Both the position numbers and the translations under genes were made by a program. Below the pieces are notes generated by a model. The model did no database searches. It had not been told where the DNA came from and saw only the letters and a list, made by a program, of their open reading frames with translations. A stretch of 64,000 nucleotides of DNA from Candidatus Pacearchaeota archaeon. Its GTDB lineage: Archaea > Nanobdellota > Nanobdellia > Pacearchaeales > UBA284. Shown here piece by piece: positions 1,346 to 32,729 of this stretch (positions are counted from its first letter, which is position 1; each line of letters starts with the position of its first letter). Location of the stretch: contig JAPLYB010000041.1 in NCBI GenBank assembly GCA_026395795.1, positions 113-64,112 of the forward strand, read 5' to 3'.

Positions 1346-1362
1346 AAAGATTAAAAGAATTC

Positions 1363-13619: not shown

Positions 13620-13630
13620 TTTATATCAAT

Positions 13631-13649
13631 TGTCATATATTATATGACA
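13631..13649. promoter_or_regulatory. perfect palindrome upstream of the MNT-HEPN operon (candidate operator)
   Basis: TGTCATATA-T-TATATGACA, 12-30 nt upstream of the start codon at 13619. Confidence 0.5.
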
Positions 13650-13699
13650 TTTATAAACTTTATTATTCATTTGCCTCTTTTTTTAGGGTCTTTTCTCTT

Positions 13700-14476: not shown

Positions 14477-16024
14477 TTAGTATCTCAGTTCTGGCAGGGG
14501 TCTGACATTGCGCTCTTCTTCCGTATTGTATTCTCGACCAGCTCTCCTTTTTTTATGTGTTTTTTTTGCAGTTTTATTCATTCTTCTGTTGGTTTTTCTT
14601 AAATTTCTCTTCAACTTCTTAATTTTTATGTTTCTTCTTCTATGTATTCGGTGAGATTCTCCCAGCCTCTCTATTTTTTCAAGATTTCTCTTCCTTACTT
14701 CATTATAAGTCTTCTCAGATATGATCCCCCTTTTATGCTGCTGCTCAATAGTATTCAGAAGTTCTTTGATTTCTTTTATTTCTTGATCAAATGGATTCGG
14801 TTCTGACAGACTTTCTTTTTCAGATTCATCTCTAGTTTTTCCACGTTCAGGTTTAGATGAATTTTGCATTTCTGCTTCAAGCTGCTCTATTTTCTTTTTG
14901 TTTATGTCAGTATTCATTTTCAGACCATCCACAGCACTCTCAATATATTTAGACCAGTCATTTATGCTGTTCATTTCCTTTTCTGTCCCGATGTTTTCAA
15001 TCTCCTTATCAATATTTTTCAAGATTATTGCATTTTTCTCTGTTATTTCCCTATATGCCCCTTCAGAAATCATCTTTTTATTAAATTGATCATCCAAATT
15101 CTTTATTAAAATTTCTATCTCTTCTTTTTTCTTTGTTTTTTCAGCTACTCTTTCTTCTTTTTTAATTCCCATCTTTAACTGCTCTGCAAGAGATTTGCTA
15201 AAATCCTCTTTTGTTATGAAATCATCCATTTTTATTTTAGTGCTGTCAAAATCTTTTAACATTTCCTTTGTAAGCTCTTCTGTCTGTTCTACTTTTGCTT
15301 GCATAGATTGAATTTCTTTTACTCTTTTCTCGCTTTCTAGGAAGAATCTTTCAGATTTAGCAGAATCTCTTTCAACAGCCCATTTTAATTCTTTAATTTT
15401 CTCGAAGGTATCATTCACCTCTTTGTTCAAATCTTCTATATTCTCGATGCTTCTCACTTTTTCAAGAATTTTTTCGCTTTTAGTTGTTCTCTTGCCTAAA
15501 TCCTCACAAAAGGTGGTTATCTTCTCAATATTTGCATTGAGCTTACCTACATCCTGGTCCCTTAATTCTATCATCTTCTTGAATTTTTCAGGCTTGAATT
15601 CTTTCACGACATCAACAAGCTCTTCAACTTGTTTTTCTGTTTCTTTTATTGTTGAGTCTCTCTGGAAAAACAAAGACCTTATTTCTCCAATAGACTCTGC
15701 AAGCTCTTTTATTCTTTCATCAGCTTCAAATTTAATTGTCTTCAGAGTATTGACAACTTCACGGAGTTTTTCAACTTCCATGAGAACCCTAGTGATGCTG
15801 ATCTTCTCTCCCTGCCCAGGATCTTCTCTGTATCTTTCTTCATCATCCTTGATTATCCCTTCATCTCTCAAAATGTCTCCAACAGCCCTCTCTACATTTT
15901 TCTCTTTGGGCAGCTGCTTGAAAGTATCACTATTCTCTTCAGAATCATTCTCTTCAGGGATATCTTCGGGGATATTTTCTGGGGTGTCCTCTTCCTGCGC
16001 TTCCTCTTTTTTTCTTCTAGCCAT
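14477..16024 (-). CDS. 515-aa coiled-coil protein, acidic N-terminus and highly basic C-terminus
   Basis: Starts 2 nt after the giant gene's stop, so probably co-transcribed. Heptad-rich Glu/Lys sequence with two SHOCT-like motifs (KKMISEGAYREITEKN; KRGIISEKTYNEVRKRN) and an Arg/Lys tail. Confidence 0.6.
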   Translation of the reverse strand: MARRKKEEAQEEDTPENIPEDIPEENDSEENSDTFKQLPKEKNVERAVGDILRDEGIIKDDEERYREDPGQGEKISITRVLMEVEKLREVVNTLKTIKFEADERIKELAESIGEIRSLFFQRDSTIKETEKQVEELVDVVKEFKPEKFKKMIELRDQDVGKLNANIEKITTFCEDLGKRTTKSEKILEKVRSIENIEDLNKEVNDTFEKIKELKWAVERDSAKSERFFLESEKRVKEIQSMQAKVEQTEELTKEMLKDFDSTKIKMDDFITKEDFSKSLAEQLKMGIKKEERVAEKTKKKEEIEILIKNLDDQFNKKMISEGAYREITEKNAIILKNIDKEIENIGTEKEMNSINDWSKYIESAVDGLKMNTDINKKKIEQLEAEMQNSSKPERGKTRDESEKESLSEPNPFDQEIKEIKELLNTIEQQHKRGIISEKTYNEVRKRNLEKIERLGESHRIHRRRNIKIKKLKRNLRKTNRRMNKTAKKTHKKRRAGREYNTEEERNVRPLPELRY

Positions 16025-16026
16025 GT

Positions 16027-19000
16027 TTACAGTTTCTTAAGTTTTTCTCTAAGAGATTCTAAATAGGTCTCAGCCATTCTAAATTGAGCCTGCTTCACCT
16101 TTTCTTTTGTCAATTTAACCTCAAGCTCAAGATCATAAGTATCTTTACCTCCTTTTTTGATTTCTTCTACCTTTTTCTCAATTTCTGATAATTCTTGTTG
16201 ATATTTGTTATATATAAATAATTCTTTTTCTGAGATTCTTGAGGTATCGTGCAATAGAGGCCTAAATTCAACAAGCCATGGTTTTCCATCGTTATACTCT
16301 GGATTCTGCACAATGCCCGTGCCTGTTTTCAATTTCGGCAAAGCCACTGCAAAATTGTTCCCATAGCTCTTTCTGACTCTGTCTATATCTGCGCTGTACT
16401 TGGTTCTCATCTGTATTTCGCTTGCTATTACAGCCTTCATTGTTCCCTTGAAATCAGCAATTACCTGAGATACCATCACTAGACCAATACCCCATTTTCT
16501 GAATTCTCTTACTCCCCTTTCAAGTGCAAGATATCCATTCTTTCCGCCGTATTTTGGAAGCAGTCTGTGAACTTCATCGTAAACAATCAAGAGCTTTAAC
16601 TTTCTAGACTCTTCCCACGGCACTGCAAATATTGTGTTAACTGTTTTTGTAACAAATGCATCAAGCTGACTTGGAGTCATTTTTGTTAAAGAGAATACAG
16701 TTATCTCTCCCTTATTTGTATAATTCTCTATTTTGATATCCATTGCTGGATCGATAACATCGACTATATTTCCTTTAAATGATCTGGTATCTCTTTCAGA
16801 AAGTCCAAACTTCTTGTAGATCTCAAGCATATGTTCATCTCTGCACGCTCTTACAAATCCAGTCCATTGAGCAGTTGGGTCGAAGACAATGCATGGGATT
16901 CCTTTTTTAAGAGCCTCCTCAACAAGAACCATGGCAGAGATTGTTTTTCCAGCGCCTGTCCCTCCGGCAACTATCAGATGCTGTGTTAATTTATCCAAAT
17001 CAAAGTAGGCCTTATTAGCAGTCTCTGCTATTTTTCCGACTGTTACTCCTTTTGGCAACTTTTGCTGTTCAGCAGAGAAATCATATCTCTTCTTAGCTTT
17101 TCTTCTTAAACCTAATTTCCTTAGGATCTTCGGCAGGAAGAAAAGGAAAATAATAAATAAGATGATTAAATAGAACCACCAGTTCATATAGTTATTCTTC
17201 AAGAAAGTTATCAAAAAGAATTCATTTACAACTTCAAAACTCACTAGAGTAGATGCTGTTTTGTTGTTATAATGAGCAACTGCAGATACTAAATACAATC
17301 CTGGCTTGATATCATTTGGTAGTTTTATTGCTTTTGTATATTCTAATTTTCTGTCTACAGCAACCGTCTCTCCAGTACTCAAGATTTCCTCTTTTACTTC
17401 TGCTTTTTCTATTGTGTAATTAACAGTAACATCAACTTTTTCCACCTCTCCAAAAGTAAACAAGCTCACTCTTAGAGTCAATGTATTCCCAGGTCTTACT
17501 TTAGGTGTCAAAGCATTAATATTCACATCCATCAATGCTTGAGGCGGGTTTTCTACTGTAAGTATAACAGATATCTTATTGGTTTTATCGTCGAATTTAG
17601 CTAGAATAGCTCCTAGATAAGTGCCCAGAACAGTAGTTTCAGATGCATAAAATTTCAATTGTATGTATTCTGTACTGCCGGCTTCTATATCAATTGAAGT
17701 TTTTTCAAACTGGACAAACTCCCATATTTTTCCTTCTGCTGAAAGTTGGGCAGTCACCTTATGATTAAGGTTGTTCGTTATTCCTACTGAAACAATCTTA
17801 TATTCTCCAGGTGCGAGAGACACAGTTAAAGAGTCTGTTGAAAAGTCTAATGAACTTCCTTGAGTACTTGCTGTAGTGCTTGCTCCGCCTCCGCCGCCTC
17901 CACCGCCTCCGCCACCGCCAGGAGGAGTCGTAGAGCATGAACTCTGAGAGCATGAACTACTGCAACAGTAAGGACAAGAGCTTAAAAGATAACAAGCATT
18001 GCCGCAGCAAGTTGAGTCAGAACAGCACGAAATTCCAGAGCAGGACTCGCCAGCATTTGCGCATATTGCAGATTCAGCTGCAAAAAATGCAGAGAAGCCG
18101 GTAATATTCGTCGAGACGATATGAGTAAATTTATTGACAGTGCTATTTAATTTTGACCAGCCAGAGCTGCAAGACCATTGAATAATACTCCAGTTAGAAC
18201 ATTTGTAAAGATGTATATTATCTTCGACATCAACCCCGCCAAGCAACGATGAATAATTAATAACTATGGTGGCATTTGTAAAATTAAAACTCATATTTGT
18301 TCCTATGCCTCTTAATTTTGTCTCGACATCTGGCATTTCACCTACCTGTGTCGAAGTAATCTCACCTATTGTAAAGTTCTGTGTAATATTGGATTTTACT
18401 TCAAAATTTTTCAGGTCCATTTCATCATTAAAGAAATTCATATACAAATCATACGTTCTATTCCTGATTGTTTGGCTGAAATACCCTGTTGTTTCATCTG
18501 AAGAGAAATTATGTATCAGATATGTGCTATTTTTGCTTTCGTTTTGTTTGTAAAATTCAAAATTAACTTTCAAGCCAGCGTTGTTTGAATCTTTTACAAA
18601 ACCCTTAAATAAAATTTCTGAATAAATTTCAAACCATCCACCGTAAATATTCGTATTATTTCTTGCATCAGAAGCATATATCTTAAAATTATAATCTCCT
18701 TCTGTACTCGTATTTGTAAAATTGTACTTATAAATTGTTGGAGCAGTATTGACCATTGTAAAATTAATTTTTGTTGAATTTGGATACTCAATTTCTAATT
18801 TCACCAAGCTAACCCCAACATTATCTGTAATTTTTGCCTCTGCTGAAACATTTGCTCCGCTCTTGGCAGAACTCACGCTGGCATTAATAAAAGATGGCGG
18901 TGTAACATCAAAATAGTATATTGCATTTGTTTCAGAATCTGCTGCAGTTGCGTCAATTGTTGTATATGTTCCATACAAGCTCAAGTCATAATAACTTGCA

Positions 19001-22000
19001 TCAGTAATATTTGGAGCTGTACAATTTATTATCCATCCAGCTGAATAAGAAGCGCTTGAAACAGGACATTCAAAACTGTCAAAATAAACTAACCAGGACA
19101 TATTCTCTGTTAAATTCTCACTTCCATATACTGCATTTGCAAGAATAGTTACATTCTCTCCAGCTGTAACATTCGCAGGATTTGTCTGAGTTGGAGAAGT
19201 CAAATTAATTCTTAGTCTTACAATTTCTAAAAAAACTTCTGTGTTTTGCTGCGCAGGCACAGCTGATGAATTTGTTATAGATATATTAGCATAGTAATCT
19301 CCGTAATCTTCTGTTGTATTAAACCTGACTTCAATATAGCCTTGCGAGAGTCTGTTCACTGTTATGTTAGTGACATTTAAAATAAGATAACCAGAAGCAT
19401 TTCCTTCTTTAGTTATATCAAAGTATAACGGCACATTTCCAAGGTTCTGCACTTCTATATTTCCTAAAACACCTATTGAATTTGTTCCAACAGTTGCTGT
19501 AAAATTTATAGGCGTTCTTTGCCATCTCCAATCTTCTCCGACAATAACCGTCAAATTAATTATGTCAGAAGTTCTGTTCGAAGACCCCGATGCATTTATA
19601 ATCATTTCATAAACTCCTGGTTCATAGCTAGAAGGAATGCTGATATTCACTGTTATATTCTGTAAATATAAAGGAACAAGACTTGAAACAGAAGAAGGCG
19701 CAAAGATTATATTAAAATCAGTGCATTGCTGCCCTGAACAAATAAAAGTTATATTGCTTACATTAGCATTTCCAGTAGAATTCAATGTGAAATAAGTGGA
19801 ATTGCCTTCTTCAGGCTTTGCACTAAGACTTAAAGAATCCTGGATTATATTTAAAACAGGATTGCCTGTGACATTTACGCTAACTGTCTGAGAAGCCATG
19901 CTTGCAGTATTATTTGGATTTGTCCACCTTGCGGTTAAATTAACATTGTATAAAGCAGGAGAGGTTCCAGATGGAATATTGATTGCTGTTGAATTATATC
20001 CTTTTGCTCCATTTGTTATGTTATAATACTCTAATATTAAAGGCGACGCACTCCATCCGCTTGGAAGCTGCATACTTAAATTCGAGAAATATGCTCCTCC
20101 CTGCCCAGTATTATTTAAAGTAATATTCAAAGGAAGATTCTCTCCTGAATCTTGAGTTATGCCCTCTATAATCGCTGAAGTGGTATTTGAATAAACTCCA
20201 ATTGTCGTTGAGGATATTGATGTAAAGTTAATAACGCTGTCTGAGCAGTCTATAGCTCCTACTGGAGTCTGCGTGTCATTTGCACAGATTATTATATGAT
20301 AAACTCCGCTGCGAACAGGAGTATAAATTTCAGATAAATTGTAATCTTTTGTATATGGCGGAAGATCAGTATAACTTATTTCTATTGTTCCATTTGGCAG
20401 AGTTTTATTTGTCCAAACATAATCTAGTTCTATGTTATCATTTATATTTGCTGATATGGTGACATTCCCATAGTTTTGATCAGTCATATTTGGAAGGACA
20501 GAAGGATTGTTTACTGTTGGAGGAACATCAGTTACATTCATGTTAATAGTCGCTATTCTAGATTCTGGAGAAGCATAGCTTGCATTTGAAAAAGTCAAGT
20601 AAAGAGTATAAAGACCTCCCGCAATGCCGCTAGAATTAAAATCGCAAGTTACATTGACATCGCTGCTGCCTGAGCCTGCTTTTGGAACAAGTATATCTGC
20701 TGGACAAGTTGTCATGGCCTGCGCAGCAGCATCTCCTGATTCAGATATGGAATAAGTAACATTTTTATTTCCAAGATTTTCAACACTCATATTAAAGTTT
20801 CCTGTTGTATCTACAGGAACAATAATATTCTGATAGCTTGGCGCAATACTCCACTCTTTGCTCCATGGAACAGTTATATTTAACAGCAAATAATCCATGC
20901 AATTTGAAGAAGGGCTGCATGAAGAGCTTGTTGCATTCACAGTTATATTCGCTGTGTAAAAATCAGGATCCTGCCCGAGTGGAATGCTCACATTTATATT
21001 GACTGTCTGTGAATTTTTCTTTGCAATATAAAAGTTATCTGGTGAAAATGACAGCCATGAGCTGTTGAGATTTCCTCCCGAAGCAGAGCTTCTAATTCCC
21101 TCGATGATATAATTTCCTGATGCTCCAACAATATAACTTGCAGTTTTCGAGCTTCCGTGAGAAATAGAGTCATTAATGCTTTCTTTATCAAGAGTCAAAA
21201 CAGGATTGTAAGAAACATAGATATTTGTTTTGTTGCTTGTAATTGATTGCGTATTATTTGGGTTTATCCATCTTGCTGTAATATTTGCATAAATTGTATG
21301 CCCTGCAGTGGCATCAACTGTAACAGTTATTCTGAAAATTCTTGTGCAATTTTCCCCTGCAGAAATATTTCCGCAATTTTCAAAGCTGGAGTTTGAATAT
21401 GCTCCTGATTCTGAAAGATTCATTGTCAAGTTTGAAAAACGTATTGTTCCCTCTGATCCTGTATTTTTAAATACGGCAGTTATATCAAAAGTGTAATTTG
21501 TAGTGTTAGTTATTCCTGAAGCTGTTTCAGACTGATTTTGATATATTATTCCAGTTGCAGAGCCAGTGGCGACAAACGTCCCAGTCCATGTTGAATTTAT
21601 ATTTCCTGAAGTGTCATTCGCATAAACTGTAACATTATATGTTCCTGCTAAAACAGGAGTATAGTTTACTCTATAAGTTCCATTTGATGAATTTCCTGAA
21701 ATCAAGTTCATGAACAATGGAATCTTGGTGCTGTTTGGCAAAGTTATGTTTGCCCAGACTTTATCGACCTGGACGTTATCATTTACATTTGCGCTTATAT
21801 TCAGTGATTCATAATTGACATCCAAGATTGTTCTGCTCAAAGAAGAATTTGTTATGTTTGGACTTATATTATCTGTTACATTAAGAGTAATTGTCAGATT
21901 ACGCTGGACAGGAGCAGCAGAAGAATTTGATATTGTCACATTGCAAGTATAAATGCCTGGTTGCTTGTTTAATGGAACAGAGTAATTTATTATTAAATTT

Positions 22001-25000
22001 CCCGTATTGTTTGGATACGGAGAAACTAACATTGATGCTGGAATAGAAAGCATTGAAGATGCATTCCCAGAATCATTTGCAATATCAAAGGTTATATTCA
22101 AATTTCCTTGATTAGTGATTGTTACATTTGATAATTGCCCAGAACTTGAGGTGTTAATTGCCTGGCTTAAAGATGAAGGGGCAATTTTCCAGCTCGTATC
22201 ACTTGTAACATTAATAGTAATATTTAAAAATTTCCAGCAATTTTCAGAAGGCGAGCAATATTGTGTGGAATTTGTAGCATTTATTATAAAACTAGATTGA
22301 TAAATTCCAGGCGCTTGCCCCATAGGAATTGTCACATTTATTGTCATTAATTTATTTGAACCAGCTTGGATGTTTGGCAGATAATTAATATAAGGAGAAG
22401 AAATAAACTCCACCCAATCCTGGGATAGATTTCCTGAACTTGCATTAAAAAATATTTCGCTTAATAAATAATTTCCAGTTGAGTTTACATAAAATGTTCC
22501 GATTGTTTTTTCAGTAGACTGATTCACTGAATCTGAAAATGTGTCTGATGTGATATTCAAGATAGGATTATTCAAGATAATTGCCCGCGTTGTGTTAGTT
22601 ACTGAAGCTGTGGAATTATCTGGATTTTTCCATTTTCCCTCGCAAGTGATATTATAATTTCCAGGAACTTCTGCTACTGGTATACTAACATTCCATCTTG
22701 CAGTATAATTGCTTTGAATTGGAATATCAATATTTTCCCATGCAGTCAAGTTAGTGAAATTCCAGTTAGAAGGAGCATCTATTTCTTGTAATTTGATGCT
22801 TCTCATTGTTGTATTTCCGGTGTTATATAAAGTTAAATTTATGATAAAACTTGCTCCTGAATTCTGGGATGTTCTTAGTGATGTAGAAGTTGGATCTTCC
22901 TGCAAATATCCTGTTGTCTGATTAAAAGCAATAAAGCTCCCTACATAAGTTGAATTTATATTTCCAAAAGTGTCATTTGCATAAACACTGACATTATAGG
23001 TTCCTGCTAGAATAGGAGTATAGTTTACTCTGTAAGTTCCATTTGATGAATTTCCAGAAATTAAACTCATGAAAGATGGTGTACGAGTGCTGTTTGGCAA
23101 AGTTATGTTTGCCCAGACCTTATCAATTTGAATATCATCGCTTGCATTGGTTGTTATTGTAATATTTTCATAGAAAACTTCTGCATGTGAAGGATTCAAA
23201 GAATAATTTGAGAAAGATGGATAAATAACATCCTTTACTTGAAGAAGCTGTGTTGCTTGAGCTATTGCTACATCATAATATACAGAAGCATCATCAATTA
23301 TATTACATTTAAGCAAAAACCATCCTGTCTGATTAGTTGTCCAATTTACAGATGAGTATCCTGAAGAATTGCTTAAGCTTGAATTAATAAAACTAGTATT
23401 GTAAAAAAAGCTTGTGTTATAATTTTCTATTCCTATGCTTGAATTAGAATCTTTGACCTTGCACACAAGTGCATAAGTCTGGCTGTAGTTCAAGTTGCTT
23501 GTTGGGGAAATCCATTGTGGCTCAGACCATCCATAAATTTCAATGCTGATTGAAGATAAAGAATAATCATAATATGTTTTGCTTGCATTTGCGCTGATTT
23601 GCTGGCTATCTCCTCTTGAGTGATTAGCAGGAATCTGCCAAAAAACATCTTCGCCACTTCCAATCAAACTTGTTGAATTATACCACAGAACAGTTGCGCT
23701 AACTGCTACGCTATTTTCATCTAAGATTGTTGATGCCAAAGACAGATTGTCTAATTTGTGGTATTTTCCCCCAGAATCTGGCGAGTCAATTGTGGTATAT
23801 AATTTTCCCTTGTCAACAATCCATGTCTGGTTTGTAGTTGATGGAGAAAATCCTGTTTTGGTTGCATTTATATAAATAGTATAATTATCAGGAGTGATTG
23901 TATCTGCTGGATTATAAGTTATATTGCAAGAGCCAGATGAGTTAGTTATGCAGGAAGTAAATTCTGCTGTTGAATTATAGAAATGCACTGTAGCATTGCT
24001 TGAATTTCCAAGCAAACCCTGAAGAATATGGACTGTTATTAAAGAACTGTGCGGTGTGAAAACATCTTTTCTGTATATTTCAGTATACTGTCGACTTATA
24101 ACATCTATTCTTAAATTTCTTATAATTGCTATGTAGGTTTGATTTTCCTTTGAAGCTAGGTTTGCAGTATAATTTAAATTAGAATCATCTGTGATGTTGC
24201 ATTTAATTGTATAAATTCCTTCATCTTCTGCGGATGTATCCCAGTACCAGACCGCATATCCACTCGAGTTTGTGTAATTCACTGTTTGTAATGAATCATT
24301 TTTCCAGAAACTTACAGTATAATTCTCAAGAATTATGCTTGTGTTTGCATCTAAAACTTTGCATTTAACAGGAACAACAGATCCTGCAGAATAAGTGCTG
24401 TTTCCAGGAGAAATTTCAGTAATATTTGCAAAGGCCTGAATTATTATGGTTGTATTTGCTTGTGAATCATCAAAATATATTTTGCTTGTGTTTATTTTTA
24501 AGACAAGATTTCCATAAGAATGATTTATAGGGATAAGCCAGGTTGCATCTTCTAAATTGTTTATAATTTCTGCTCCAAGACTCCATGTTGCACTTACTGC
24601 CTGAACTACATTATTCTCATCTTTAGTTGTTGAATTTAAAGTTATTGTCTGATTTTTAAAATATATTGTTCCATTGCTTGGCAAGTCTAAAATTGTGCTC
24701 AAAAATCCTTTTATTGTCTGATTTTTTATGTCGCTTATTGCCCATGAATAATCAGATGAGGTGTTTGCTTTCATTTCATAAACACCAACTGCAATGCTGT
24801 CAGGCGGATTATGAATTAAAGATGCATTGCCGTCTATTGTTGACTGGCTTCCTAATTTCGTTGCTGCACGCCAGAAATCAACTATAAAATCATTCACATT
24901 TCCGTTTTCATCTCTAACATTTACAGCAAGTGTTGAATTATACGGCTTTCCCTGCTGTATTGCTTTTGTATTATTTCTGTAGATTTCATCAGGGTTAAGA

Positions 25001-28000
25001 GTTAATGTTAAATTTATTTTTCTCCAAACCTCAAGACTTGTATTTATCTCATTAGATGAACTTGAGTTATAATACAATGATGAATTGTCAGTTATATTGC
25101 ATTTTATATTATATGGACCCAAATCATTATAAGAATCCCAATACCAGACAGCATATCCACTCGAGTTTGTGTAATTTGTTGCTTGCAACACATCATCTTT
25201 CCAGAAACTCACAGGATAATTAGATATTGGACTTGAAAAATTTGCATCCCACACTCTGCAAAGAACAGAAGTTACAGACCTATTTAATCTGCCTCCTGAT
25301 AAATTTGAAATGCTCATCTCACTTAGATTTGCCCATCCCCATACATAAAAACTGCTGCTTGAAGAATTCCAGGCATTAGCAGAATCATTGACATAAAACT
25401 TGTATGAAACAAAAGTGCCTGCCAAGCTGTTGTTTGGAATTTGCAAAGTTGTGTTTATCCATGCGCTTGTGCCATTTAAAGTTCCATTGGTTATATTAAC
25501 AGAAACACCTGTAATATTCCATTCAAAAAAGTAAAAGCTTAAATTAGTATTATCCTGCCATAGAGAATAAAACTTGACATATTCGCCTGCTTTAGGGTCT
25601 GATTTATTTATGTTTGCTGTTACATTAGCCTGAGGAGCCTGCTTGTCAATATAAAATACCGCGCTTGTTTTTAGTGTTTCAGCATTTCCAGCACTGTCGT
25701 TGCTTTTGTAGCACACTTTTTTCTGGCAATCCACAGAGCATGATACTATGCTAGAATTTCCTGATGTCATATTAGATTCATTGCAAGTTGCATTTGAATC
25801 AATAATCTGATATAATGTTGTGTTGCATCCAGAATAATCATCAGAGCATGTTAAATTAAAAGGAACATCTGAACTTGTGTAATTTGTTCCATTTGGAGAG
25901 ATTGTTGTTGTTGGAACAAGCCAGTCTGCACCAAGTATCACTCTTGTTTCTGAAACTCCTATTGCTAAAGAAGAGTCATTTGCAGTTACATTGTAATAAT
26001 AAGGTCCAACTGATAATGAAGTTTTATTATAATAGCAGGAAACATTTGTTCCTGAGCCGACTTTTGTCATTGCTATGCTTGTTCCATTCCAGTTCAAAGT
26101 GCATACATCAATAGGATATGCGCCTGAAACAGTCACATTAATATAATAGTAGCTTTTATTCAGCCACGTATTACTTAATTGGCTTGGAGAAGCAAAATAT
26201 ACATACGGCGGAGTTGTAAATGTCATTACAAGCATGTTTGGAATAAGATAGTTTCCAGTAAGATTAACAGGCAAATTAGAATTTGCATATCCATCTTTGG
26301 TTCCATTAAAAGAGTAGTTTGTATCATAATACATCGCAGTAGCGTTTTGCATATATTCTCTTAAAGTTAACCTTGGAGTATACCCTGAACTGTTTGTCAA
26401 ACTCCAATTCATCAGCACATTATTCACAGTATAAGCTGAAATATTTGCTCCTGATATTACTTCCCCGTCTGTGTTGTTTGCATAAACATCTGCGTACCAG
26501 AAAATGTTTATTGAACCTGTAGAAGAAATGCTTGTGTCTGATTTGTTGAAAGTACAATTTGTGAAATTATTGATACCTGTCGTTACGCTTCTAATATCTG
26601 GGGCGCCAGAATAAGATGCGTTAATTAAAGAATCTTTAATTGAATTGTTAATTGAACTTGATTCAAAATCAATTCCATAAGTATTAACAGAACCATAAGT
26701 CGTCTTAATGTTGCTAGTCGAAATGATATTGTTTGAGCTTGTACCCTCAAATTCGATTGCATAAACAAAATTACCAGAAACTAAAATATTCTTGCTTATT
26801 AAATTATTGCTTGAACTTGAGCTAACATCAATCCCATTACTCGATTGTGCAGAAGTCACGATATTATCCCCGATTAAATTATTATAATTCGAACTCGTTA
26901 AAAGATAAATCCCATGACTAGAACTTCCACTTGTGCTCACATTACAATTAGTCACATTATTCCTACTCGCAGTTAAAAGATAAATTCCATATAAATTTGC
27001 ATTCGTTGTCGTAGTGATATTCAATAAATTAAAAGTATTATTCTCTAAGAAAGCTGAACTTGAACCATAAGCAAAAACTCCATATCCATTATTAGTTGTG
27101 ACTTTTGAATTGTTTATTGTTGATAAACTTGTATTATAAAAGCTAAAGCCATCATTCCCCATTGTAACATTATCATAAGTAACATTAGAACACCATGCAC
27201 AAACTAATTGTCCGATTGAATTTGAAACGTCTATGTTAGATAAAATTGTTGTGTTGCTCACAGAATAATTATACCAGATAGGCAAACCTTCTGCTAAATT
27301 TGATGTATCGATTGAATGATTGTAATGGCTGGATGTTGTTCCTGTGACATAAACTCCGACGCTGGAGGAAGTGTTGAAACGGTTTCCTGTTAAAGTGGAG
27401 TTTGTTGAAGAATCTTGATAAAAGCCGTAAGCTCCGCTTCCTGTTGTTGTAATGTTGTTGCTTAAGATGGTGTTGTTTGCTGAACTTGAAGCAACGTAAA
27501 TTCCATACTTGTCTGAAGGACCAGTTAAACTTATTATATTGCTTGAAAGAGTGTTGTTCGAACTTGAAACAATATCTATCCCCCCACTAAGGGGATTAAA
27601 ATATGTAGGAGAAATAGCTATTTGATTGTTTTGAATTAAATTATTATTAGAAGAAAGAAGGTATAAACCCAGACAATTGTTAGCCCCATTACCAATTGTA
27701 TTATTGCTAATCACGTTATTATTGCTTGAAGAAAAGACGAATAGCTTTTGATGAGCATTGTCATTAATACCAATGCCAGTATTATTTGAGACAGTGTTAT
27801 AACTTGAAGAAGACACCTTGATTGAACCAGCAGTCTGGCTGTTTACAGTAGTGCTTAACATGTTCACTGTAAGATTATTATAACTCCCGCCATTAAGATA
27901 AATCGCGTAACCATCACCAATCACAATAGTGTTATTAAATATCGTTCCATTTCCTGCAGATGCCCCATTGTAATAAATTCCATATGCACTTGCCGTTGTT

Positions 28001-29868
28001 GTAGTTTCTTTTATAACACAGTTCTTCACCGTCGTGAAACTCGAATTAGAATAAACTCCATATCCAACAGCAGAAGAAGAATAGTTGATTGTAAAGCCGT
28101 TGCAATCTAAAGTGACGTTATTTGCCCAGACATTAAAGCAAGTTCCTACTGAGGAAACATTCTGTGTTAATTGATAGTATCTGTCTGCTGTAGAAAGGTT
28201 CGCACAACCAGTTACATTATTGATTAAAGTCAAAACAATAGGATTTCCTGTGTCTGTTATGTAATTAGTTGTAAGATTTACTTGTCTTGAACCACTTCCC
28301 CAGTAAAAATTAGATACATTAAATGAATAATTCGTTGCAAAATATTGTGCAGTAGCGTTTTGCATATATTCTCTTAGTGTAACTCTTGGCGTGAACCCAG
28401 TTGCATTTGTTAAAGACCAATTAGATAAACTTCCAGTTACATTATAAACAGAAACATTCGCTCCGCTCACGTTATTCCCCGCCGTGTCATTTACAAAAGT
28501 GTCCGCGTACCAGAAAACATTCAAATTTCCTGAACCAAGAACACTCGTGTCTGACTTGTCAAATGTTACATTTGTCAAATTCCATAAGCCTCCTGTGACA
28601 GTATTCTCAACATAGAAATCAGCAACTCCTGAGTAAGATGCATTTAGAACTGAGTTGGTAATTGTAAAATTATGATTTGCATCATGAATATAAACAGCAT
28701 TTGCATTAGAATTGTTTGTCTGGATGTTTGTTCTGTCAAATAAATTATTTGTTGAACTTGATGAAAAATAAATGCCGTATCCATTGTTTCCTGTTGTTTG
28801 AATCTTATTGTTTGACAAGTTATTTGATGAGCTTGATGAAAAATAAATTCCATTCCCACTCTCCCCCGTTGTGCTCACATTACTCCCCGTAACATTATTC
28901 CCTGACGCAGTCAAAAGATAAATTCCATAAAGATAGCTATTCGTTGTCGTAGTTATATTCAATAAATTAAAAGTATTATTCTGCAAGAATGAAGAATTAC
29001 TTCCGTAAGCAAACACCCCATATCCATTATTTGTACTTACAACTGAATTATTTATCTTCGAGTTGCTCGTATTATAAAATCCAAAACCATCAGCAGTCAT
29101 GTTAAAGTTATTATAAGTCATATTATCGCACCATGCGCAGATAACTTGCCCGTAAGTTCCGCTAGCTATATCCTGATAGAGCAAATTCTGCCCATTAAAC
29201 GTATAATTAATAGGCAATCCCTCTGCTAAATTTGATGTATCTATTGATTGATTGTAGTGAGCTTGAGTTGTTCCTGTGACATAGACTCCAACTGCACTTG
29301 TTGTATTGAAACGATTGTTTGTAAGGGCGGAGTTTGTTGAAGAGGAAGAGGAAAAACCATGGGCACCTGAACCAGTTATTGTGACGTTGTTGCTTGTTAC
29401 AATGTTATTATTTGAAGATGAATTTAAATAAATCCCCGAGCCCCAAATTTGATTAATATTTGTTTTTATTGTAACATTAAACAAATAAGGAGTATAGTTC
29501 TGGTCTTCTGTAAAGAATGTTGCTTTATACTTAAAATAAGGACTATTAGTTAAATTTGCAAGAGAAGTATAATCCGCATTGGTGAAAAATGGAGACCATA
29601 CTGCATCAGAGCAATCTGGAAGAGAACAAGTCCCGATTTGCAAACTCAAGTTCAAAGCACCAGTTGCATTGGTGTTTCCAGTGTCCGCGAATACGCCAAA
29701 TAAATCAGAAACAGAAGAGTAAGTATCGCCAAGAACAAAGCCGATATTCAACATGGAAAAAATTAAGAAGAACAACGCCAAGGCTACTAAGAAAATCTTT
29801 CTTTCGTTTGAAGATTCGTTAGTCTTGTGGAAAATTTTCATGTTTTCTATCATTTTGATATATCCCAA
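16027..29868 (-). CDS. giant (~4610-aa) surface protein with a C-terminal cytoplasmic HerA/FtsK-like ATPase
   Basis: Single uninterrupted ORF. Order of parts: N-terminal TM/signal anchor, two parallel beta-helix modules, many Ig-like repeats with dense N-x-S/T sequons, a Cys-rich knot (CANAGESCSGISCCSDSTCCGNACY...), poly-Gly(12), CARDB-like domains, TM helix WWFYLIILFIIFLFFL, then the P-loop ATPase. The track start at 29868 is TTG. The ATG at 29853 (MIENMKIFHKT) overlaps the upstream stop as ATGA and is more likely. Confidence 0.85.
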   Translation of the reverse strand: MGYIKMIENMKIFHKTNESSNERKIFLVALALFFLIFSMLNIGFVLGDTYSSVSDLFGVFADTGNTNATGALNLSLQIGTCSLPDCSDAVWSPFFTNADYTSLANLTNSPYFKYKATFFTEDQNYTPYLFNVTIKTNINQIWGSGIYLNSSSNNNIVTSNNVTITGSGAHGFSSSSSTNSALTNNRFNTTSAVGVYVTGTTQAHYNQSIDTSNLAEGLPINYTFNGQNLLYQDIASGTYGQVICAWCDNMTYNNFNMTADGFGFYNTSNSKINNSVVSTNNGYGVFAYGSNSSFLQNNTFNLLNITTTTNSYLYGIYLLTASGNNVTGSNVSTTGESGNGIYFSSSSSNNLSNNKIQTTGNNGYGIYFSSSSTNNLFDRTNIQTNNSNANAVYIHDANHNFTITNSVLNASYSGVADFYVENTVTGGLWNLTNVTFDKSDTSVLGSGNLNVFWYADTFVNDTAGNNVSGANVSVYNVTGSLSNWSLTNATGFTPRVTLREYMQNATAQYFATNYSFNVSNFYWGSGSRQVNLTTNYITDTGNPIVLTLINNVTGCANLSTADRYYQLTQNVSSVGTCFNVWANNVTLDCNGFTINYSSSAVGYGVYSNSSFTTVKNCVIKETTTTASAYGIYYNGASAGNGTIFNNTIVIGDGYAIYLNGGSYNNLTVNMLSTTVNSQTAGSIKVSSSSYNTVSNNTGIGINDNAHQKLFVFSSSNNNVISNNTIGNGANNCLGLYLLSSNNNLIQNNQIAISPTYFNPLSGGIDIVSSSNNTLSSNIISLTGPSDKYGIYVASSSANNTILSNNITTTGSGAYGFYQDSSTNSTLTGNRFNTSSSVGVYVTGTTSSHYNHSIDTSNLAEGLPIWYNYSVSNTTILSNIDVSNSIGQLVCAWCSNVTYDNVTMGNDGFSFYNTSLSTINNSKVTTNNGYGVFAYGSSSAFLENNTFNLLNITTTTNANLYGIYLLTASRNNVTNCNVSTSGSSSHGIYLLTSSNYNNLIGDNIVTSAQSSNGIDVSSSSSNNLISKNILVSGNFVYAIEFEGTSSNNIISTSNIKTTYGSVNTYGIDFESSSINNSIKDSLINASYSGAPDIRSVTTGINNFTNCTFNKSDTSISSTGSINIFWYADVYANNTDGEVISGANISAYTVNNVLMNWSLTNSSGYTPRLTLREYMQNATAMYYDTNYSFNGTKDGYANSNLPVNLTGNYLIPNMLVMTFTTPPYVYFASPSQLSNTWLNKSYYYINVTVSGAYPIDVCTLNWNGTSIAMTKVGSGTNVSCYYNKTSLSVGPYYYNVTANDSSLAIGVSETRVILGADWLVPTTTISPNGTNYTSSDVPFNLTCSDDYSGCNTTLYQIIDSNATCNESNMTSGNSSIVSCSVDCQKKVCYKSNDSAGNAETLKTSAVFYIDKQAPQANVTANINKSDPKAGEYVKFYSLWQDNTNLSFYFFEWNITGVSVNITNGTLNGTSAWINTTLQIPNNSLAGTFVSYKFYVNDSANAWNSSSSSFYVWGWANLSEMSISNLSGGRLNRSVTSVLCRVWDANFSSPISNYPVSFWKDDVLQATNYTNSSGYAVWYWDSYNDLGPYNIKCNITDNSSLYYNSSSSNEINTSLEVWRKINLTLTLNPDEIYRNNTKAIQQGKPYNSTLAVNVRDENGNVNDFIVDFWRAATKLGSQSTIDGNASLIHNPPDSIAVGVYEMKANTSSDYSWAISDIKNQTIKGFLSTILDLPSNGTIYFKNQTITLNSTTKDENNVVQAVSATWSLGAEIINNLEDATWLIPINHSYGNLVLKINTSKIYFDDSQANTTIIIQAFANITEISPGNSTYSAGSVVPVKCKVLDANTSIILENYTVSFWKNDSLQTVNYTNSSGYAVWYWDTSAEDEGIYTIKCNITDDSNLNYTANLASKENQTYIAIIRNLRIDVISRQYTEIYRKDVFTPHSSLITVHILQGLLGNSSNATVHFYNSTAEFTSCITNSSGSCNITYNPADTITPDNYTIYINATKTGFSPSTTNQTWIVDKGKLYTTIDSPDSGGKYHKLDNLSLASTILDENSVAVSATVLWYNSTSLIGSGEDVFWQIPANHSRGDSQQISANASKTYYDYSLSSISIEIYGWSEPQWISPTSNLNYSQTYALVCKVKDSNSSIGIENYNTSFFYNTSFINSSLSNSSGYSSVNWTTNQTGWFLLKCNIIDDASVYYDVAIAQATQLLQVKDVIYPSFSNYSLNPSHAEVFYENITITTNASDDIQIDKVWANITLPNSTRTPSFMSLISGNSSNGTYRVNYTPILAGTYNVSVYANDTFGNINSTYVGSFIAFNQTTGYLQEDPTSTSLRTSQNSGASFIINLTLYNTGNTTMRSIKLQEIDAPSNWNFTNLTAWENIDIPIQSNYTARWNVSIPVAEVPGNYNITCEGKWKNPDNSTASVTNTTRAIILNNPILNITSDTFSDSVNQSTEKTIGTFYVNSTGNYLLSEIFFNASSGNLSQDWVEFISSPYINYLPNIQAGSNKLMTINVTIPMGQAPGIYQSSFIINATNSTQYCSPSENCWKFLNITINVTSDTSWKIAPSSLSQAINTSSSGQLSNVTITNQGNLNITFDIANDSGNASSMLSIPASMLVSPYPNNTGNLIINYSVPLNKQPGIYTCNVTISNSSAAPVQRNLTITLNVTDNISPNITNSSLSRTILDVNYESLNISANVNDNVQVDKVWANITLPNSTKIPLFMNLISGNSSNGTYRVNYTPVLAGTYNVTVYANDTSGNINSTWTGTFVATGSATGIIYQNQSETASGITNTTNYTFDITAVFKNTGSEGTIRFSNLTMNLSESGAYSNSSFENCGNISAGENCTRIFRITVTVDATAGHTIYANITARWINPNNTQSITSNKTNIYVSYNPVLTLDKESINDSISHGSSKTASYIVGASGNYIIEGIRSSASGGNLNSSWLSFSPDNFYIAKKNSQTVNINVSIPLGQDPDFYTANITVNATSSSCSPSSNCMDYLLLNITVPWSKEWSIAPSYQNIIVPVDTTGNFNMSVENLGNKNVTYSISESGDAAAQAMTTCPADILVPKAGSGSSDVNVTCDFNSSGIAGGLYTLYLTFSNASYASPESRIATINMNVTDVPPTVNNPSVLPNMTDQNYGNVTISANINDNIELDYVWTNKTLPNGTIEISYTDLPPYTKDYNLSEIYTPVRSGVYHIIICANDTQTPVGAIDCSDSVINFTSISSTTIGVYSNTTSAIIEGITQDSGENLPLNITLNNTGQGGAYFSNLSMQLPSGWSASPLILEYYNITNGAKGYNSTAINIPSGTSPALYNVNLTARWTNPNNTASMASQTVSVNVTGNPVLNIIQDSLSLSAKPEEGNSTYFTLNSTGNANVSNITFICSGQQCTDFNIIFAPSSVSSLVPLYLQNITVNISIPSSYEPGVYEMIINASGSSNRTSDIINLTVIVGEDWRWQRTPINFTATVGTNSIGVLGNIEVQNLGNVPLYFDITKEGNASGYLILNVTNITVNRLSQGYIEVRFNTTEDYGDYYANISITNSSAVPAQQNTEVFLEIVRLRINLTSPTQTNPANVTAGENVTILANAVYGSENLTENMSWLVYFDSFECPVSSASYSAGWIINCTAPNITDASYYDLSLYGTYTTIDATAADSETNAIYYFDVTPPSFINASVSSAKSGANVSAEAKITDNVGVSLVKLEIEYPNSTKINFTMVNTAPTIYKYNFTNTSTEGDYNFKIYASDARNNTNIYGGWFEIYSEILFKGFVKDSNNAGLKVNFEFYKQNESKNSTYLIHNFSSDETTGYFSQTIRNRTYDLYMNFFNDEMDLKNFEVKSNITQNFTIGEITSTQVGEMPDVETKLRGIGTNMSFNFTNATIVINYSSLLGGVDVEDNIHLYKCSNWSIIQWSCSSGWSKLNSTVNKFTHIVSTNITGFSAFFAAESAICANAGESCSGISCCSDSTCCGNACYLLSSCPYCCSSSCSQSSCSTTPPGGGGGGGGGGGGASTTASTQGSSLDFSTDSLTVSLAPGEYKIVSVGITNNLNHKVTAQLSAEGKIWEFVQFEKTSIDIEAGSTEYIQLKFYASETTVLGTYLGAILAKFDDKTNKISVILTVENPPQALMDVNINALTPKVRPGNTLTLRVSLFTFGEVEKVDVTVNYTIEKAEVKEEILSTGETVAVDRKLEYTKAIKLPNDIKPGLYLVSAVAHYNNKTASTLVSFEVVNEFFLITFLKNNYMNWWFYLIILFIIFLFFLPKILRKLGLRRKAKKRYDFSAEQQKLPKGVTVGKIAETANKAYFDLDKLTQHLIVAGGTGAGKTISAMVLVEEALKKGIPCIVFDPTAQWTGFVRACRDEHMLEIYKKFGLSERDTRSFKGNIVDVIDPAMDIKIENYTNKGEITVFSLTKMTPSQLDAFVTKTVNTIFAVPWEESRKLKLLIVYDEVHRLLPKYGGKNGYLALERGVREFRKWGIGLVMVSQVIADFKGTMKAVIASEIQMRTKYSADIDRVRKSYGNNFAVALPKLKTGTGIVQNPEYNDGKPWLVEFRPLLHDTSRISEKELFIYNKYQQELSEIEKKVEEIKKGGKDTYDLELEVKLTKEKVKQAQFRMAETYLESLREKLKKL
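16030..17130 (-). other. cytoplasmic HerA/FtsK-superfamily (DUF87-like) ATPase domain of the giant protein
   Basis: Follows the TM helix at ~17131-17187. Walker A is VAGGTGAGKT (~16942-16980) and Walker B is LLIVYDEVHRLLP, followed by FRKWGIGLVMVSQ. This motif order matches HerA/DUF87 ATPases. Confidence 0.7.
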
Positions 29869-31262
29869 TACCCTCCTTTGTCAGGACCGACTCTTTTCAG
29901 AACACCCTTTTCTTTAAGTTTAGCCAATTGCATTTCAATAGCTCTAGAACCGACACCCAATTCTTTACTTAACTTTTCTGCACTAATCCCTGAATCCCGT
30001 CTTATTAAAGCAATAATTTTCTCCGAAGTTTTCTCCGAAGTTTTCTCCGAAGTTTCGCTCTCTCTTTTAGAAGTTGCCCTGCTTTCTGCATCAAAGAAGA
30101 ACTCAATTCTATAATAATCCAGCCCAAGTGAAACAACAGGCTTTCTTGAATAGTGATAAGTCCATCCCTTAAACATTTTATCAAACCCGTATCCCGCGTT
30201 TTCTGCTAAATCAATTACTCTAAACATTTTTGTTATCAGGGGATTTCTTGGCAAGGAAATATCTCCTTTCTGTAGTTCTTCATATGGCTTGGGCAATGCT
30301 CCCGGATTAAGAAACTCAATTCTATTCAAGAAAACTCTTATTCTCGGCTTCATTGGGGAAAAATAGTCTGAATGAATGAGCAAATTAACGAGGGCTTCTC
30401 TTATTGCTTTAACTTGGGGCTGATTTTCATCTCTAAAAGCGCCATTTAGCTTGAATGGAATGTCTATCTTTTTTATAATTCGTTCATAAATTGCAAAGAA
30501 ATATTCATACAAATTAGGATAATCTGATATTCTAAACTCATATCTTCTTTCAGCATCAGAATAGCTTGTCCCAAATACTTCTAAATAGTCTATCTTAAAA
30601 TCAGGGAAGTATTTTGCCATGCAATCTTCATTTCCAAAAACCAATAATCCCGCAATAGTAACATGTCCTTTTTCAAGAGCTCGTATCTTGGTCAGAAATT
30701 CTTCATCAGAAAGAGAGTTATAGGGATGTTCAGGTTTTATATTCTTTAAATAAAGCCTATACCTCTTTATAGTTTCCTTATTCAAGTCATTCATCCTTAG
30801 TTCAGTAATTTCGCTATCCTTTGTTCCAAAAACAGAATCTCTAAACAGGGAATTCAACTCTTCTCGGGTAACTCTCTGGTCACCGCTTCCAGACCTGATA
30901 AAAGTATTTTTAGGGTTATTATAAAATACTGGCTTGCTTTTAGAAACAGGGATATAAAAAGCAAGAACAATTTTTCCATCAAAATTATACTTTTTGCATT
31001 TAACATCAATTTTTTTATTAAATTTCTCCCCTCTTAGAACTCCAATAAAATCATGCTCAATCTTTTCAGGGCTAGACACGCCAAGAATAGTATATGATTT
31101 TCCTTCTTTTTTAACTCCAAACACTAGCCATCCACCTGCACTATTTGAAAAAGCAGAAACAGTTTCCCAGCTATTTTTAGGGATTTCTGATTTCGCTTCT
31201 TTGACTTCAAAGTCTTCCCATTCAATATCCCCTAATTTTTGAACCAATTCTTGCTTATTCAT
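29850..31262 (-). CDS. AlbA_2 (Schlafen-like) domain + C-terminal wHTH putative regulator
   Basis: N-terminus ...EDFEVKEAKSEIP...SAFSNSAGGWLVFGV is typical of the AlbA_2 DNA-binding domain. C-terminal wHTH ends RVGPDKGGYW. Its stop overlaps the ATG of the giant gene. Confidence 0.7.
   Translation of the reverse strand: MNKQELVQKLGDIEWEDFEVKEAKSEIPKNSWETVSAFSNSAGGWLVFGVKKEGKSYTILGVSSPEKIEHDFIGVLRGEKFNKKIDVKCKKYNFDGKIVLAFYIPVSKSKPVFYNNPKNTFIRSGSGDQRVTREELNSLFRDSVFGTKDSEITELRMNDLNKETIKRYRLYLKNIKPEHPYNSLSDEEFLTKIRALEKGHVTIAGLLVFGNEDCMAKYFPDFKIDYLEVFGTSYSDAERRYEFRISDYPNLYEYFFAIYERIIKKIDIPFKLNGAFRDENQPQVKAIREALVNLLIHSDYFSPMKPRIRVFLNRIEFLNPGALPKPYEELQKGDISLPRNPLITKMFRVIDLAENAGYGFDKMFKGWTYHYSRKPVVSLGLDYYRIEFFFDAESRATSKRESETSEKTSEKTSEKIIALIRRDSGISAEKLSKELGVGSRAIEMQLAKLKEKGVLKRVGPDKGGYWDISK
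30017..30052. repeat. in-frame 12-bp tandem repeat x3 (TTTTCTCCGAAG), encodes (SEKT)n
   Basis: Three perfect consecutive copies read directly, located just N-terminal of the wHTH. Confidence 0.85.
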
Positions 31263-32384: not shown

Positions 32385-32571
32385 TCAGCATTTGGCTTCA
32401 TCTTACTAACCGTTGGTTTTGGTTTTTTATATTCAGCTTGTCAAAAACCTTTTGGTGTTTGAGCACTGTCAGGAATCTTTTGATTCCTGAAGTTTCAGCT
32501 TGGATTTGGATTGATGTAGTTCTCTTGCACTGTTCATCGTCTCCGTAAAGACCACGAATCTGGCATTGAGG

Positions 32572-32692
32572 ACTATTGCAACAGCGAAAGCCGATATTGT
32601 TGTTCACATTCGACGGGTCATTATTCAAATTCGCATAAAAGGGACCCGCATTAGCCCAATTATTCCAATTGCCGCCACGGATCACCGCCCGC
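32572..32692 (-). repeat. DGR template repeat (TR)
   Basis: 121 bp matching 35842-35962 at a constant offset of 3270. The sense strand would encode 12 AAY (Asn) codons (GGNWNNWANAGPFYANLNNDPSNVNNNIGFRCCNS). There are 29 sense-strand adenines. Confidence 0.85.
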
Positions 32693-32729
32693 TGTCTATC
32701 ACAATCCAGCCCATTCCTATTTAGGAACA

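Follow-up and report, generated by a model that had tools for sequence, protein, structure and literature searches.

The locus analysed here lies in a 64-kb stretch of archaeal DNA from contig JAPLYB010000041.1 (hereafter the window, meaning the whole stretch) and is dominated by one very large open reading frame (ORF). It encodes a giant, predicted type-I membrane protein, in which a glycosylated ectodomain of beta-helix and Ig-like repeats is joined, through a single transmembrane (TM) helix, to a cytoplasmic HerA-like ATPase domain. We assign it with high confidence to the SPEARE family of giant surface proteins first described in Nanohaloarchaeota. The giant, its parts and the two genes whose linkage to it is conserved elsewhere are listed below (aa, amino acids).

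16027–29868, minus strand: giant ORF, 13.8 kb, 4613 codons from TTG 29868, without interruption
29725–29805, minus strand: N-terminal hydrophobic segment, aa 22–48 (hydropathy scan)
26629–29211, minus strand: distal right-handed beta-helix (pectin-lyase/NosD-like), aa ~220–1080 (Pfam Beta_helix, NosD)
18094–26628, minus strand: Ig-like repeat stalk, aa ~1081–3925 (Pfam NEW3/NPCBM_assoc, Filamin, PKD, Big_7)
17884–18063, minus strand: Cys-rich knot (12 Cys, aa 3936–3978), then Gly12 (aa 3984–3995) (sequence inspection)
17230–17850, minus strand: two juxtamembrane Ig-like beta sandwiches, aa 4007–4105 and 4111–4213 (structure model, Foldseek)
17107–17190, minus strand: single TM helix, aa 4227–4254, followed by a basic stretch (hydropathy scan and structure model)
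16234–17061, minus strand: HerA-like P-loop ATPase core, aa ~4270–4545 (Pfam, PDB profile search, AlphaFold/Foldseek)
16942–16968, minus strand: Walker A of the ATPase core
16864–16884, minus strand: FDPTAQW motif of the ATPase core
16555–16593, minus strand: Walker B of the ATPase core
16465–16509, minus strand: REFRKWG..SQ motif of the ATPase core
16030–16230, minus strand: C-terminal three-helix coiled-coil region of the ATPase domain, aa 4547–4613 (model and alignment)
14477–16024, minus strand: coiled-coil partner gene, 515 aa, beginning 2 nt past the stop of the giant
9174–12479, minus strand: second large type-I surface protein, 1101 aa (Pfam Ig/MG2-like domains and sequence features)

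Architecture of the giant and its place in the SPEARE family

The single uninterrupted 13.8-kb frame claimed by the initial annotation of this DNA is present over its full 4613 codons. Translation probably starts at ATG 29853, with TTG 29868 the less likely start, because the ATG forms an ATGA overlap with the stop codon of the upstream gene and GGAGG lies upstream of it. The overlapping gene is one of two paralogous Schlafen genes (AlbA_2–HATPase_c_4–wHTH) in the window. A hydropathy scan of the giant returned two hydrophobic segments only, aa 22–48 and aa 4227–4254. The first had been read as an N-terminal anchor; the hydrophobic segment is indeed there, and it could equally be a Sec signal peptide. 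The second is the single TM helix near the C-terminus, whose extent we correct from ~17131–17187 to 17107–17190, and it is followed by the basic stretch KILRKLGLRRKAKKRY.

The 4120 residues between the two hydrophobic segments carry 291 N-X-S/T sequons, against one in the 398 residues after the TM helix, and 500 composition-preserving shuffles of the ectodomain gave 124 ± 9 sequons with a maximum of 149. On the strength of this asymmetry, and of the basic stretch past the TM helix, the giant is predicted to be a type-I membrane protein with its glycosylated ectodomain outside, one membrane passage and a cytoplasmic C-terminus, which places the P-loop domain on the side of the membrane that had been claimed for it.

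The description of the ectodomain as beta-helix and Ig-like repeats with dense sequons is likewise borne out, by Pfam matches and by the sequon count. The beta-helix region contains internally duplicated blocks (repeats D5 and D6). Large parts of the stalk behind it have no Pfam match, and three of the nine 500-aa chunks into which the giant was divided returned none at all. The Cys-rich knot and the run of exactly 12 glycines were both found as described, and we read the glycine run as a hinge. The two membrane-proximal domains had been called CARDB-like: two Ig-like beta sandwiches are indeed modelled there (predicted local distance difference test score, pLDDT, 91; Foldseek matches to tandem Ig/FnIII-like folds), whereas the label itself does not hold, Pfam making no CARDB or NEW3 call at either domain at E ≤ 0.01. 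The pair is kept even in short paralogues of the SPEARE family. Compared with another giant, P0122, the protein is colinear at 42% identity from aa 1716 onwards to the C-terminus; P0122 does not share its beta-helix tip, which is not conserved in related giants generally either. By these alignments the distal tip is variable and the membrane-proximal region conserved.

The initial annotation knew of no characterised counterpart to the layout, while allowing that related fusions might already be catalogued. It is in fact the published SPEARE architecture (PMC6642349; PMC10266531). Hamm et al. 2019 described these proteins in Nanohaloarchaeota as mostly extracytoplasmic, with NAR1_1133 measuring 5998 aa and those of Ca. 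Nanopetramus SG9 as much as 8553 aa. A TM segment lies close to the C-terminus, the conserved P-loop region inside the cell was taken for a type III restriction enzyme, and the ectodomain is said to hold one or more laminin-G domains. The authors also noted that Woesearchaeota, Aenigmarchaeota, Micrarchaeota and Altiarchaeales have similar sequences, and their proteomic data demonstrated synthesis of the SPEARE protein by Nha. antarcticus (PMC6642349). Reva et al. 2023 reported SVXNc_0300 (9409 aa) and BNXNv_0298 (8880 aa) in cultivated nanohaloarchaea, whose parts run from a signal peptide and Ig-like repeats through a TM helix to a ‘VirB4/TraG-like ATPase’ and terminal coiled coil; they interpreted these proteins as devices for host contact or secretion, proposed that they form a secretion ‘straw’, and disputed protease or restriction-type domains in any SPEARE protein (PMC10266531). 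Cytoplasmic bridges between a SPEARE-bearing nanohaloarchaeon and its host have been seen by cryo-electron tomography (PMC11001535).

We aligned the last 611 aa of the giant directly with the C-terminus of the Ca. Nanohaloarchaeum antarcticus SPEARE protein, the latter taken from Fig. S18 of the supplementary information of PMC6642349. Identity is 34% across 631 alignment columns (E = 2e-117). The aligned part takes in the two beta sandwiches, the TM helix, the ATPase domain and the terminal helices, and a poly-Gly run stands at the same position in both proteins. Because of this alignment, membership of the SPEARE family appears close to certain. Giant ectodomain, poly-Gly run, paired beta sandwiches, single C-terminal TM helix, cytoplasmic P-loop domain and terminal helices are thus common to the window protein and the proteins of PMC6642349, as are signal peptide, Ig-like ectodomain, TM helix, FtsK-HerA-superfamily ATPase and C-terminal coiled coil to SVXNc_0300 as well as BNXNv_0298.

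There are also differences. The window giant carries a beta-helix tip, and Pfam found no Laminin_G (E ≤ 0.01), serine-protease or toxin-like domain in its ectodomain, unlike the SPEARE proteins of PMC6642349; nor did Pfam match a protease or an endonuclease anywhere in the giant, where the only related signal was a sub-threshold ResIII P-loop match. In contrast to the nanohaloarchaeal loci, the window is not halophile-like (~33% GC) and its nearest loci are aenigmatarchaeotal.

The cytoplasmic HerA-like ATPase domain

The C-terminal domain carries the four motifs that had been claimed, in the claimed order: AGGTGAGKT (given there as VAGGTGAGKT), FDPTAQW, LLIVYDEVHRLLP and REFRKWGIGLVMVSQ. In a Pfam search with the last 407 aa, DUF87 scored best (43.6 bits; cut-off 23.2), followed by HerA_C (32.1 bits; cut-off 22). 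T4SS-DNA_transf (25.3 bits; cut-off 20.1) and TrwB_AAD_bind (25.1 bits; cut-off 20.5) matched over 44–114 residues around Walker A only, and such short matches to VirD4, TrwB and FtsK models all score below DUF87 and HerA. The helicase-type ResIII P-loop match was weak (E = 1.6e-4) and below its cut-off, and CagE_TrbE_VirB, the N-terminal domain of VirB4, had no Pfam match in the C-terminal domain.

Searches by profile and by structure gave the same answer. A profile of 80 homologues run against the PDB returned Sulfolobus HerA (4d2i, E = 3.7e-12) as its best match together with the HerAs of defence systems, with DotL marginal. Designer pentatricopeptide-repeat proteins, which head the phmmer list against the PDB, are weak repeat matches summed over one helix-rich stretch and were dismissed as spurious because the family profile lists HerA-type proteins and DotL only. 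An AlphaFold model of the ATPase domain, built from the same 80-homologue alignment, reached a pLDDT of 93.3 and a predicted template-modelling score (pTM) of 0.88. Compared with the PDB by Foldseek, its first 30 ranks are all HerA, Sulfolobus HerA the best of them, and the coupling protein TcpA and a viral packaging ATPase come further down, at ranks 31 and 43. Among NCBIfam models the best matches are CedD (E = 1.8e-10; 40.2 bits against a cut-off of 600), HerA and CedB (25.9 bits against 700), all far below their family cut-offs, with weak matches to TraC and TraD; PADLOC models of HerA match with a best E of 2e-18.

Conservation within the family points to an intact active site. In the 80 homologues G96, G99, G101-K102, D225-E226 and R248/R251/K252 are invariant; that is, the Walker A lysine, the Walker B Asp-Glu pair and the R-E-F-R-K-W-G motif, which aligns with REGRKFG of HerA, are retained in 80/80. 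The terminal helices (aa 4547–4613) are conserved across the family and in SPEARE. What the domain lacks is the HAS barrel: the TM helix and the first core strand are no more than ~45 residues apart, a stretch that makes a single beta hairpin, and so HerA residues 1–116 have no counterpart in either the profile alignment or the model.

The domain is therefore best described, by homology and modelling, as HerA-like, with its catalytic motifs intact and without a HAS barrel. This upholds the earlier assignment to the HerA/DUF87 branch of the FtsK-HerA superfamily and sets aside a P-loop family unrelated to translocases. It differs from both published readings, in that PMC6642349 saw a restriction enzyme and PMC10266531 calls the ATPase VirB4/TraG-like, whereas sequence and structure searches here put HerA first. 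HerA offers the closest solved structures and profiles and shares the Walker A, Walker B and RE(G/F)RK(F/W)G..SQ motifs. Unlike the HerA of the HerA–NurA helicase for DNA-end resection and the defence HerAs of Sir2 and DUF4297 systems, the giant is membrane-anchored and fused to an ectodomain, and has neither a HAS barrel nor a NurA, Sir2 or nuclease partner; no NurA was found by Pfam among the scanned ORFs of the window.

Recurrence of the fusion and its conserved neighbours

The last 720 aa of the giant were searched against 1.84 billion cluster representatives, of which 3083 matched at E ≤ 1e-3, 373 of them at E ≤ 1e-30. In the 146 proteins that were newly listed, length reaches at least 1000 aa in 123 cases and at least 4000 aa in 21 (median 2061, maximum 7852 aa), and the module stands at or near the C-terminus in all 146. 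GTDB species genomes, when scanned, yielded at least 523 loci that encode it, labelled almost without exception Aenigmatarchaeota, Woesearchaeota, Micrarchaeota, Nanoarchaeia, Parvarchaeota, Nanohalarchaeota or Altiarchaeota; identity to the nearest locus is 62–67%, and the closest carry the label Aenigmatarchaeota. A DPANN-type source for the DNA, in keeping with the episymbiotic small-genome archaeon of the initial annotation, agrees with these closest loci and with the archaeal FttA and GatE genes encoded in the window. For comparison of gene order we took 80 loci from the GTDB scan with 6-kb upstream flanks (83 loci in all for counts of the partner gene). In most of these 80 loci the ATPase ORF outruns the flank (>2000 aa), and a large majority of the 83 independent loci encode the same adhesin–ATPase fusion.

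Short forms also occur in the family. Some consist of the TM helix and ATPase only (385–400 aa), while others have a signal peptide and one or two beta sandwiches ahead of the TM helix and ATPase (550–700 aa). PMC10266531 describes a second ATPase gene downstream of the giant; the 64-kb window has no second ATPase paralogue by tblastn, though in three loci (L001, L002 and L076) a tandem short paralogue lies between the giant and the partner gene. Homogenisation of these tandem copies within a genome was considered and rejected, since the orthologues in L002 and L076 (91% and 86.5%) are closer than the paralogues (77–81%); the duplication into giant and short forms is therefore older and not obviously homogenised. 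L001 (Woesearchaeota GCA_021734865.1, JAIPIC010000001.1, 1–7004) encodes a 15,808-aa protein that ends in the beta sandwich–TM–HerA module, followed by a 699-aa short paralogue and a 696-aa partner. This gene far exceeds the 9409-aa protein that PMC10266531 gives as the largest in cultivated archaea.

Several loci depart from the common arrangement. In L078 (1–7221) an ectodomain ORF of at least 1967 aa and a 439-aa TM–ATPase ORF lie in the same frame with a single stop codon between them, and in L046 (3–7224) a large ORF stands upstream of a 1090-aa ATPase protein; these split forms may be natural splits, pseudogenes, recoding or sequencing errors. In L012, L015 and L038 three conserved small genes (~165–200 aa, ~320 aa) precede a short (~730-aa) ATPase form, which may represent a variant operon organisation. 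A large ORF lies further upstream of the short ATPase in L038 and L015, and the one in L038 resembles the 1762-aa retroelement target gene of the window described below. Module and partner also occur in L047, L058 and L061, labelled Parvarchaeota, Nanoarchaeia and Nanoarchaeota in the annotations of these metagenome-assembled genomes; Hamm et al. 2019 reported no SPEARE matches in Nanoarchaeota or Parvarchaeota (PMC6642349).

The 515-aa coiled-coil gene with a polybasic tail that had been noted 2 nt downstream of the giant is confirmed, and its linkage proves to be conserved: a homologue, recognised by a hidden Markov model (HMM) of the partner core, lies directly downstream on the same strand in 80/83 loci, and also in the window. 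The protein has a conserved core (aa ~65–312), lacks a TM helix and a signal peptide, and is predicted to be cytoplasmic; the polybasic tail is missing in two full-length homologues (L001 and L002). Pairwise matches to homologues reach E = 4e-20 and 4e-18, and a word-indexed search with the partner found five relatives only. Pfam, NCBIfam, PADLOC and the PDB gave no significant match to a named family, returning generic SMC/coiled-coil noise and a sub-threshold FIMAH match. C-terminal extensions of 49 giant homologues were considered as fused copies of the partner (a Rosetta-stone link) and rejected, as 0/49 match the partner HMM.

When the ORFs downstream of the partner were clustered across the 80 loci, leaving out smaller clusters (≤15 loci) of short ORFs, the second surface protein emerged as the only widely shared family, with a homologue after the partner gene in 47/80 loci and in the window. 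In the window three small nucleotidyltransferase/HTH genes sit between the two. The 1101-aa protein comprises a signal peptide, Ig/MG2-like domains, Gly9, a NEW3-like domain (read by eye; Pfam gave no call), a TM helix and a helical cytoplasmic tail of ~90 aa. A ‘G-I-I-S-x-x-x-Y’ helix motif is common to its C-terminal tail and to the partner (aa ~313–340 and 429–453), and might mark a contact between the two proteins. Its identification as SHOCT was rejected, the match being sub-threshold in the partner (E = 0.0076) and absent from the tail of the surface protein. Neither the coiled-coil partner nor the second surface protein is mentioned in PMC6642349 or PMC10266531, and their linkage to the SPEARE giant is new relative to these two SPEARE papers.

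Elsewhere in the window the following features were recorded.

31296–33062, minus strand: diversity-generating retroelement (DGR), with bAvd at 32730–33062, the template repeat at 32572–32692 and the reverse transcriptase at 31296–32384
35839–41127, minus strand: DGR target gene, 1762 aa, beta-helix with a C-terminal FGE-sulfatase (C-type-lectin-fold) domain
49392–52790, minus strand: FttA/aCPSF1 (KH_TffA, beta-CASP, RMMBL), split by an intein with a LAGLIDADG endonuclease
54085–54891, minus strand: free-standing LAGLIDADG/HNH-repeat homing endonuclease gene

The DGR is complete. Its variable repeat (35842–35962) lies at the 3′ end of the 1762-aa gene, and 13/15 mismatches between template and variable repeat, counted on the alignment, fall on template adenines. 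We rejected it as a diversifier of the giant, as the variable repeat is in the neighbouring gene and not in the giant. The beta-helix tip of the giant (27926–28781) and the DGR target (36932–39540) do have in common nucleotide repeats of 65–74% identity (families D1–D5, spacing 9006 nt), which suggests sharing or exchange of modules between the two surface proteins. Defence- and regulator-type genes are dense (4693–5898, 12500–14308, 29850–31262, 34397–35659, 41191–42160, 43578–44840 and 45004–46386). They include three AAA_14–DUF4143 ATPases, one of which (34397–35659) matches PADLOC PDC-S01 at 5e-56, as well as HEPN/nucleotidyltransferase pairs and Fic, NYN and Bro-N genes.

A proposed motor at the contact with the host

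Characterised membrane-anchored ATPases of the FtsK-HerA superfamily, such as FtsK, VirD4/TrwB and EssC, work as ring-shaped pumps for DNA or protein, a mode of action also proposed for CedB and CedD. In the TrwB/VirD4 coupling proteins and in FtsK/SpoIIIE an N-terminal membrane anchor is followed by a cytoplasmic ring ATPase. The giant shares with these an anchor set before an ATPase of the same superfamily, and weak Pfam matches; it differs in that the matches are weaker than those to HerA, and in that the known proteins have short periplasmic loops only.

The explanation that we favour overall, and hold to be somewhat more likely than not, is that of a SPEARE-family giant of a DPANN archaeon, probably an aenigmatarchaeote, with a HerA-like ring motor at the contact with the host. 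The ATPase domains would assemble into a ring, probably a hexamer, at the inner face of the membrane, which would bundle several ectodomains into one host-contact structure; at the contact site a polymer (either DNA or polypeptide) would then be driven by ATP hydrolysis through the ring and thereby across the membrane of the symbiont, with the coiled-coil partner as a cytoplasmic adaptor or scaffold. Whether the giant acts as a ring translocase in this way we regard as evenly balanced, the reading being drawn by analogy, because the characterised membrane-anchored members work as ring pumps. The energised cell-cell contact or transfer device suggested in the initial annotation agrees, as a hypothesis, with what PMC6642349 and PMC10266531 had put forward before.

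Several points weigh against such a motor. With one TM helix per subunit, a ring would have at most a six-helix bundle, and hence a narrow conduit; the HAS barrel, a helper of HerA ring formation, is absent; and Pfam found no VirB6/CedA-like polytopic channel protein, VirB2/CedA1-type pilin or other component of a type IV secretion system (T4SS) in the 64-kb window. Proteomics recovered peptides of the ectodomain and of the TM-plus-cytoplasmic part in different size fractions (PMC6642349), and the halves of SPEARE proteins may therefore be separated after synthesis. The ring oligomer, its substrate, the ATPase activity and the channel are predictions, both here and in the literature.

Two more specific versions differ in what is moved and where. 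In the T4SS-like ‘straw’ of Reva et al. 2023, a VirB4/TraG-type ATPase and an ectodomain channel would inject protein effectors into the host, which makes it a sub-case of the favoured explanation, with a protein substrate and outward direction. It draws on the local T4SS-DNA_transf and TrwB_AAD_bind matches given above, on the weak NCBIfam matches to TraC and TraD, on TcpA at Foldseek rank 31, and on the publication of both the proposal and the cytoplasmic bridges (PMC10266531; PMC11001535). HerA nevertheless ranks above every T4SS ATPase by sequence and by structure, CagE_TrbE_VirB is not matched, the window contains no VirB6, VirB2 or other T4SS part, and beta-helix and Ig-like repeats would make a rod with no obvious tube, so that we think this version unlikely.

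An inward DNA motor, a reading developed from Hamm et al. 2019, seems to us similarly doubtful. Here the ring would import host DNA in the manner of the Ced system and supply nucleotides to an auxotrophic symbiont. CedD is the best NCBIfam match and CedB also matches, the closest solved structures are DNA translocases, and CedD, a membrane-bound FtsK-HerA ATPase, is essential for DNA import between contacting cells (PMC11823120). Like the giant, CedD and CedB have a TM segment before a motor of this superfamily, and the Ced system acts between contacting archaeal cells (PMC11823120). Unlike it, the Ced ATPases lack an ectodomain and function together with CedA, CedA1 and CedA2, homologues of which are not found in the window; the CedD and CedB scores (40 against 600 and 26 against 700 bits) are far under the cut-offs; and the giant has no nuclease domain, the ‘restriction enzyme’ of Hamm et al. 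being a ResIII helicase-type P-loop match that is weak here.

It is also possible, at rather low probability, that the protein is no translocase at all, and that the ATPase clusters the adhesins in an ATP-dependent manner and couples them to the cytoplasm through the coiled-coil partner, as a regulator of adhesion or a mechanical anchor. The near-universal linkage to a long cytoplasmic coiled-coil protein, the linkage to a second type-I surface protein with a helical cytoplasmic tail, the single TM helix per chain and the failure to detect a channel component would all fit. Against this, the catalytic, FDPTAQW and REFRKWG motifs are strictly conserved in the 80 homologues, as is typical of working motors, and a purely scaffolding role is not known to us for any characterised FtsK-HerA member.

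An anti-phage HerA system, to which the PADLOC matches and surroundings rich in defence-type genes might point, is very improbable: common HerA descent accounts for those matches, the giant lacks an effector partner of the Sir2, DUF4297 or other nuclease kind and has coiled-coil and surface proteins as its conserved partners, and the fusion to a glycosylated ectodomain of ~4170 aa is unlike the defence HerAs among the PDB and PADLOC matches found. Nothing was found in favour of an adhesin gene having been joined to an unrelated ATPase gene by misassembly or faulty annotation, and the chance of it is negligible, given the recurrence of the module in at least 523 loci and of the fusion in a large majority of the 83 independent loci (most with ORFs running past the 6-kb flank), in representatives of up to 7852 aa, in the 15,808-aa woesearchaeotal gene and in closed genomes already published and backed by proteomics (PMC6642349; PMC10266531), and given the colinearity with P0122 from aa 1716 to the end.

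A bolder proposal, for which we claim little confidence, extends the favoured motor to all three genes. The SPEARE giant, the coiled-coil partner and the second surface protein might together form an undescribed, DPANN-wide trans-envelope machine, independent of T4SS and Ced and unaccompanied, by the Pfam searches of the window, by a VirB6, CedA or pilin gene. In it a ring of HerA-like motors with giant ectodomains covalently attached would build or power the cytoplasmic bridges observed between DPANN symbionts and hosts, and the coiled-coil protein would serve as stator or substrate adaptor.

The window provides a complete, uninterrupted, non-halophilic member of the SPEARE family with its full operon. 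To the known architecture, the comparison adds a HerA-like core without a HAS barrel, a near-universal coiled-coil partner and a frequent second surface protein, and the results argue against the ‘restriction endonuclease’ reading and against a strict ‘T4SS’ reading. The SPEARE family is the main candidate for the contact apparatus by which DPANN archaea, given their minimal genomes, would draw lipids, nucleotides and proteins from the host; the linkage to the partner, the second surface protein and the at least 523 loci offer handles for structural and biochemical work on it.

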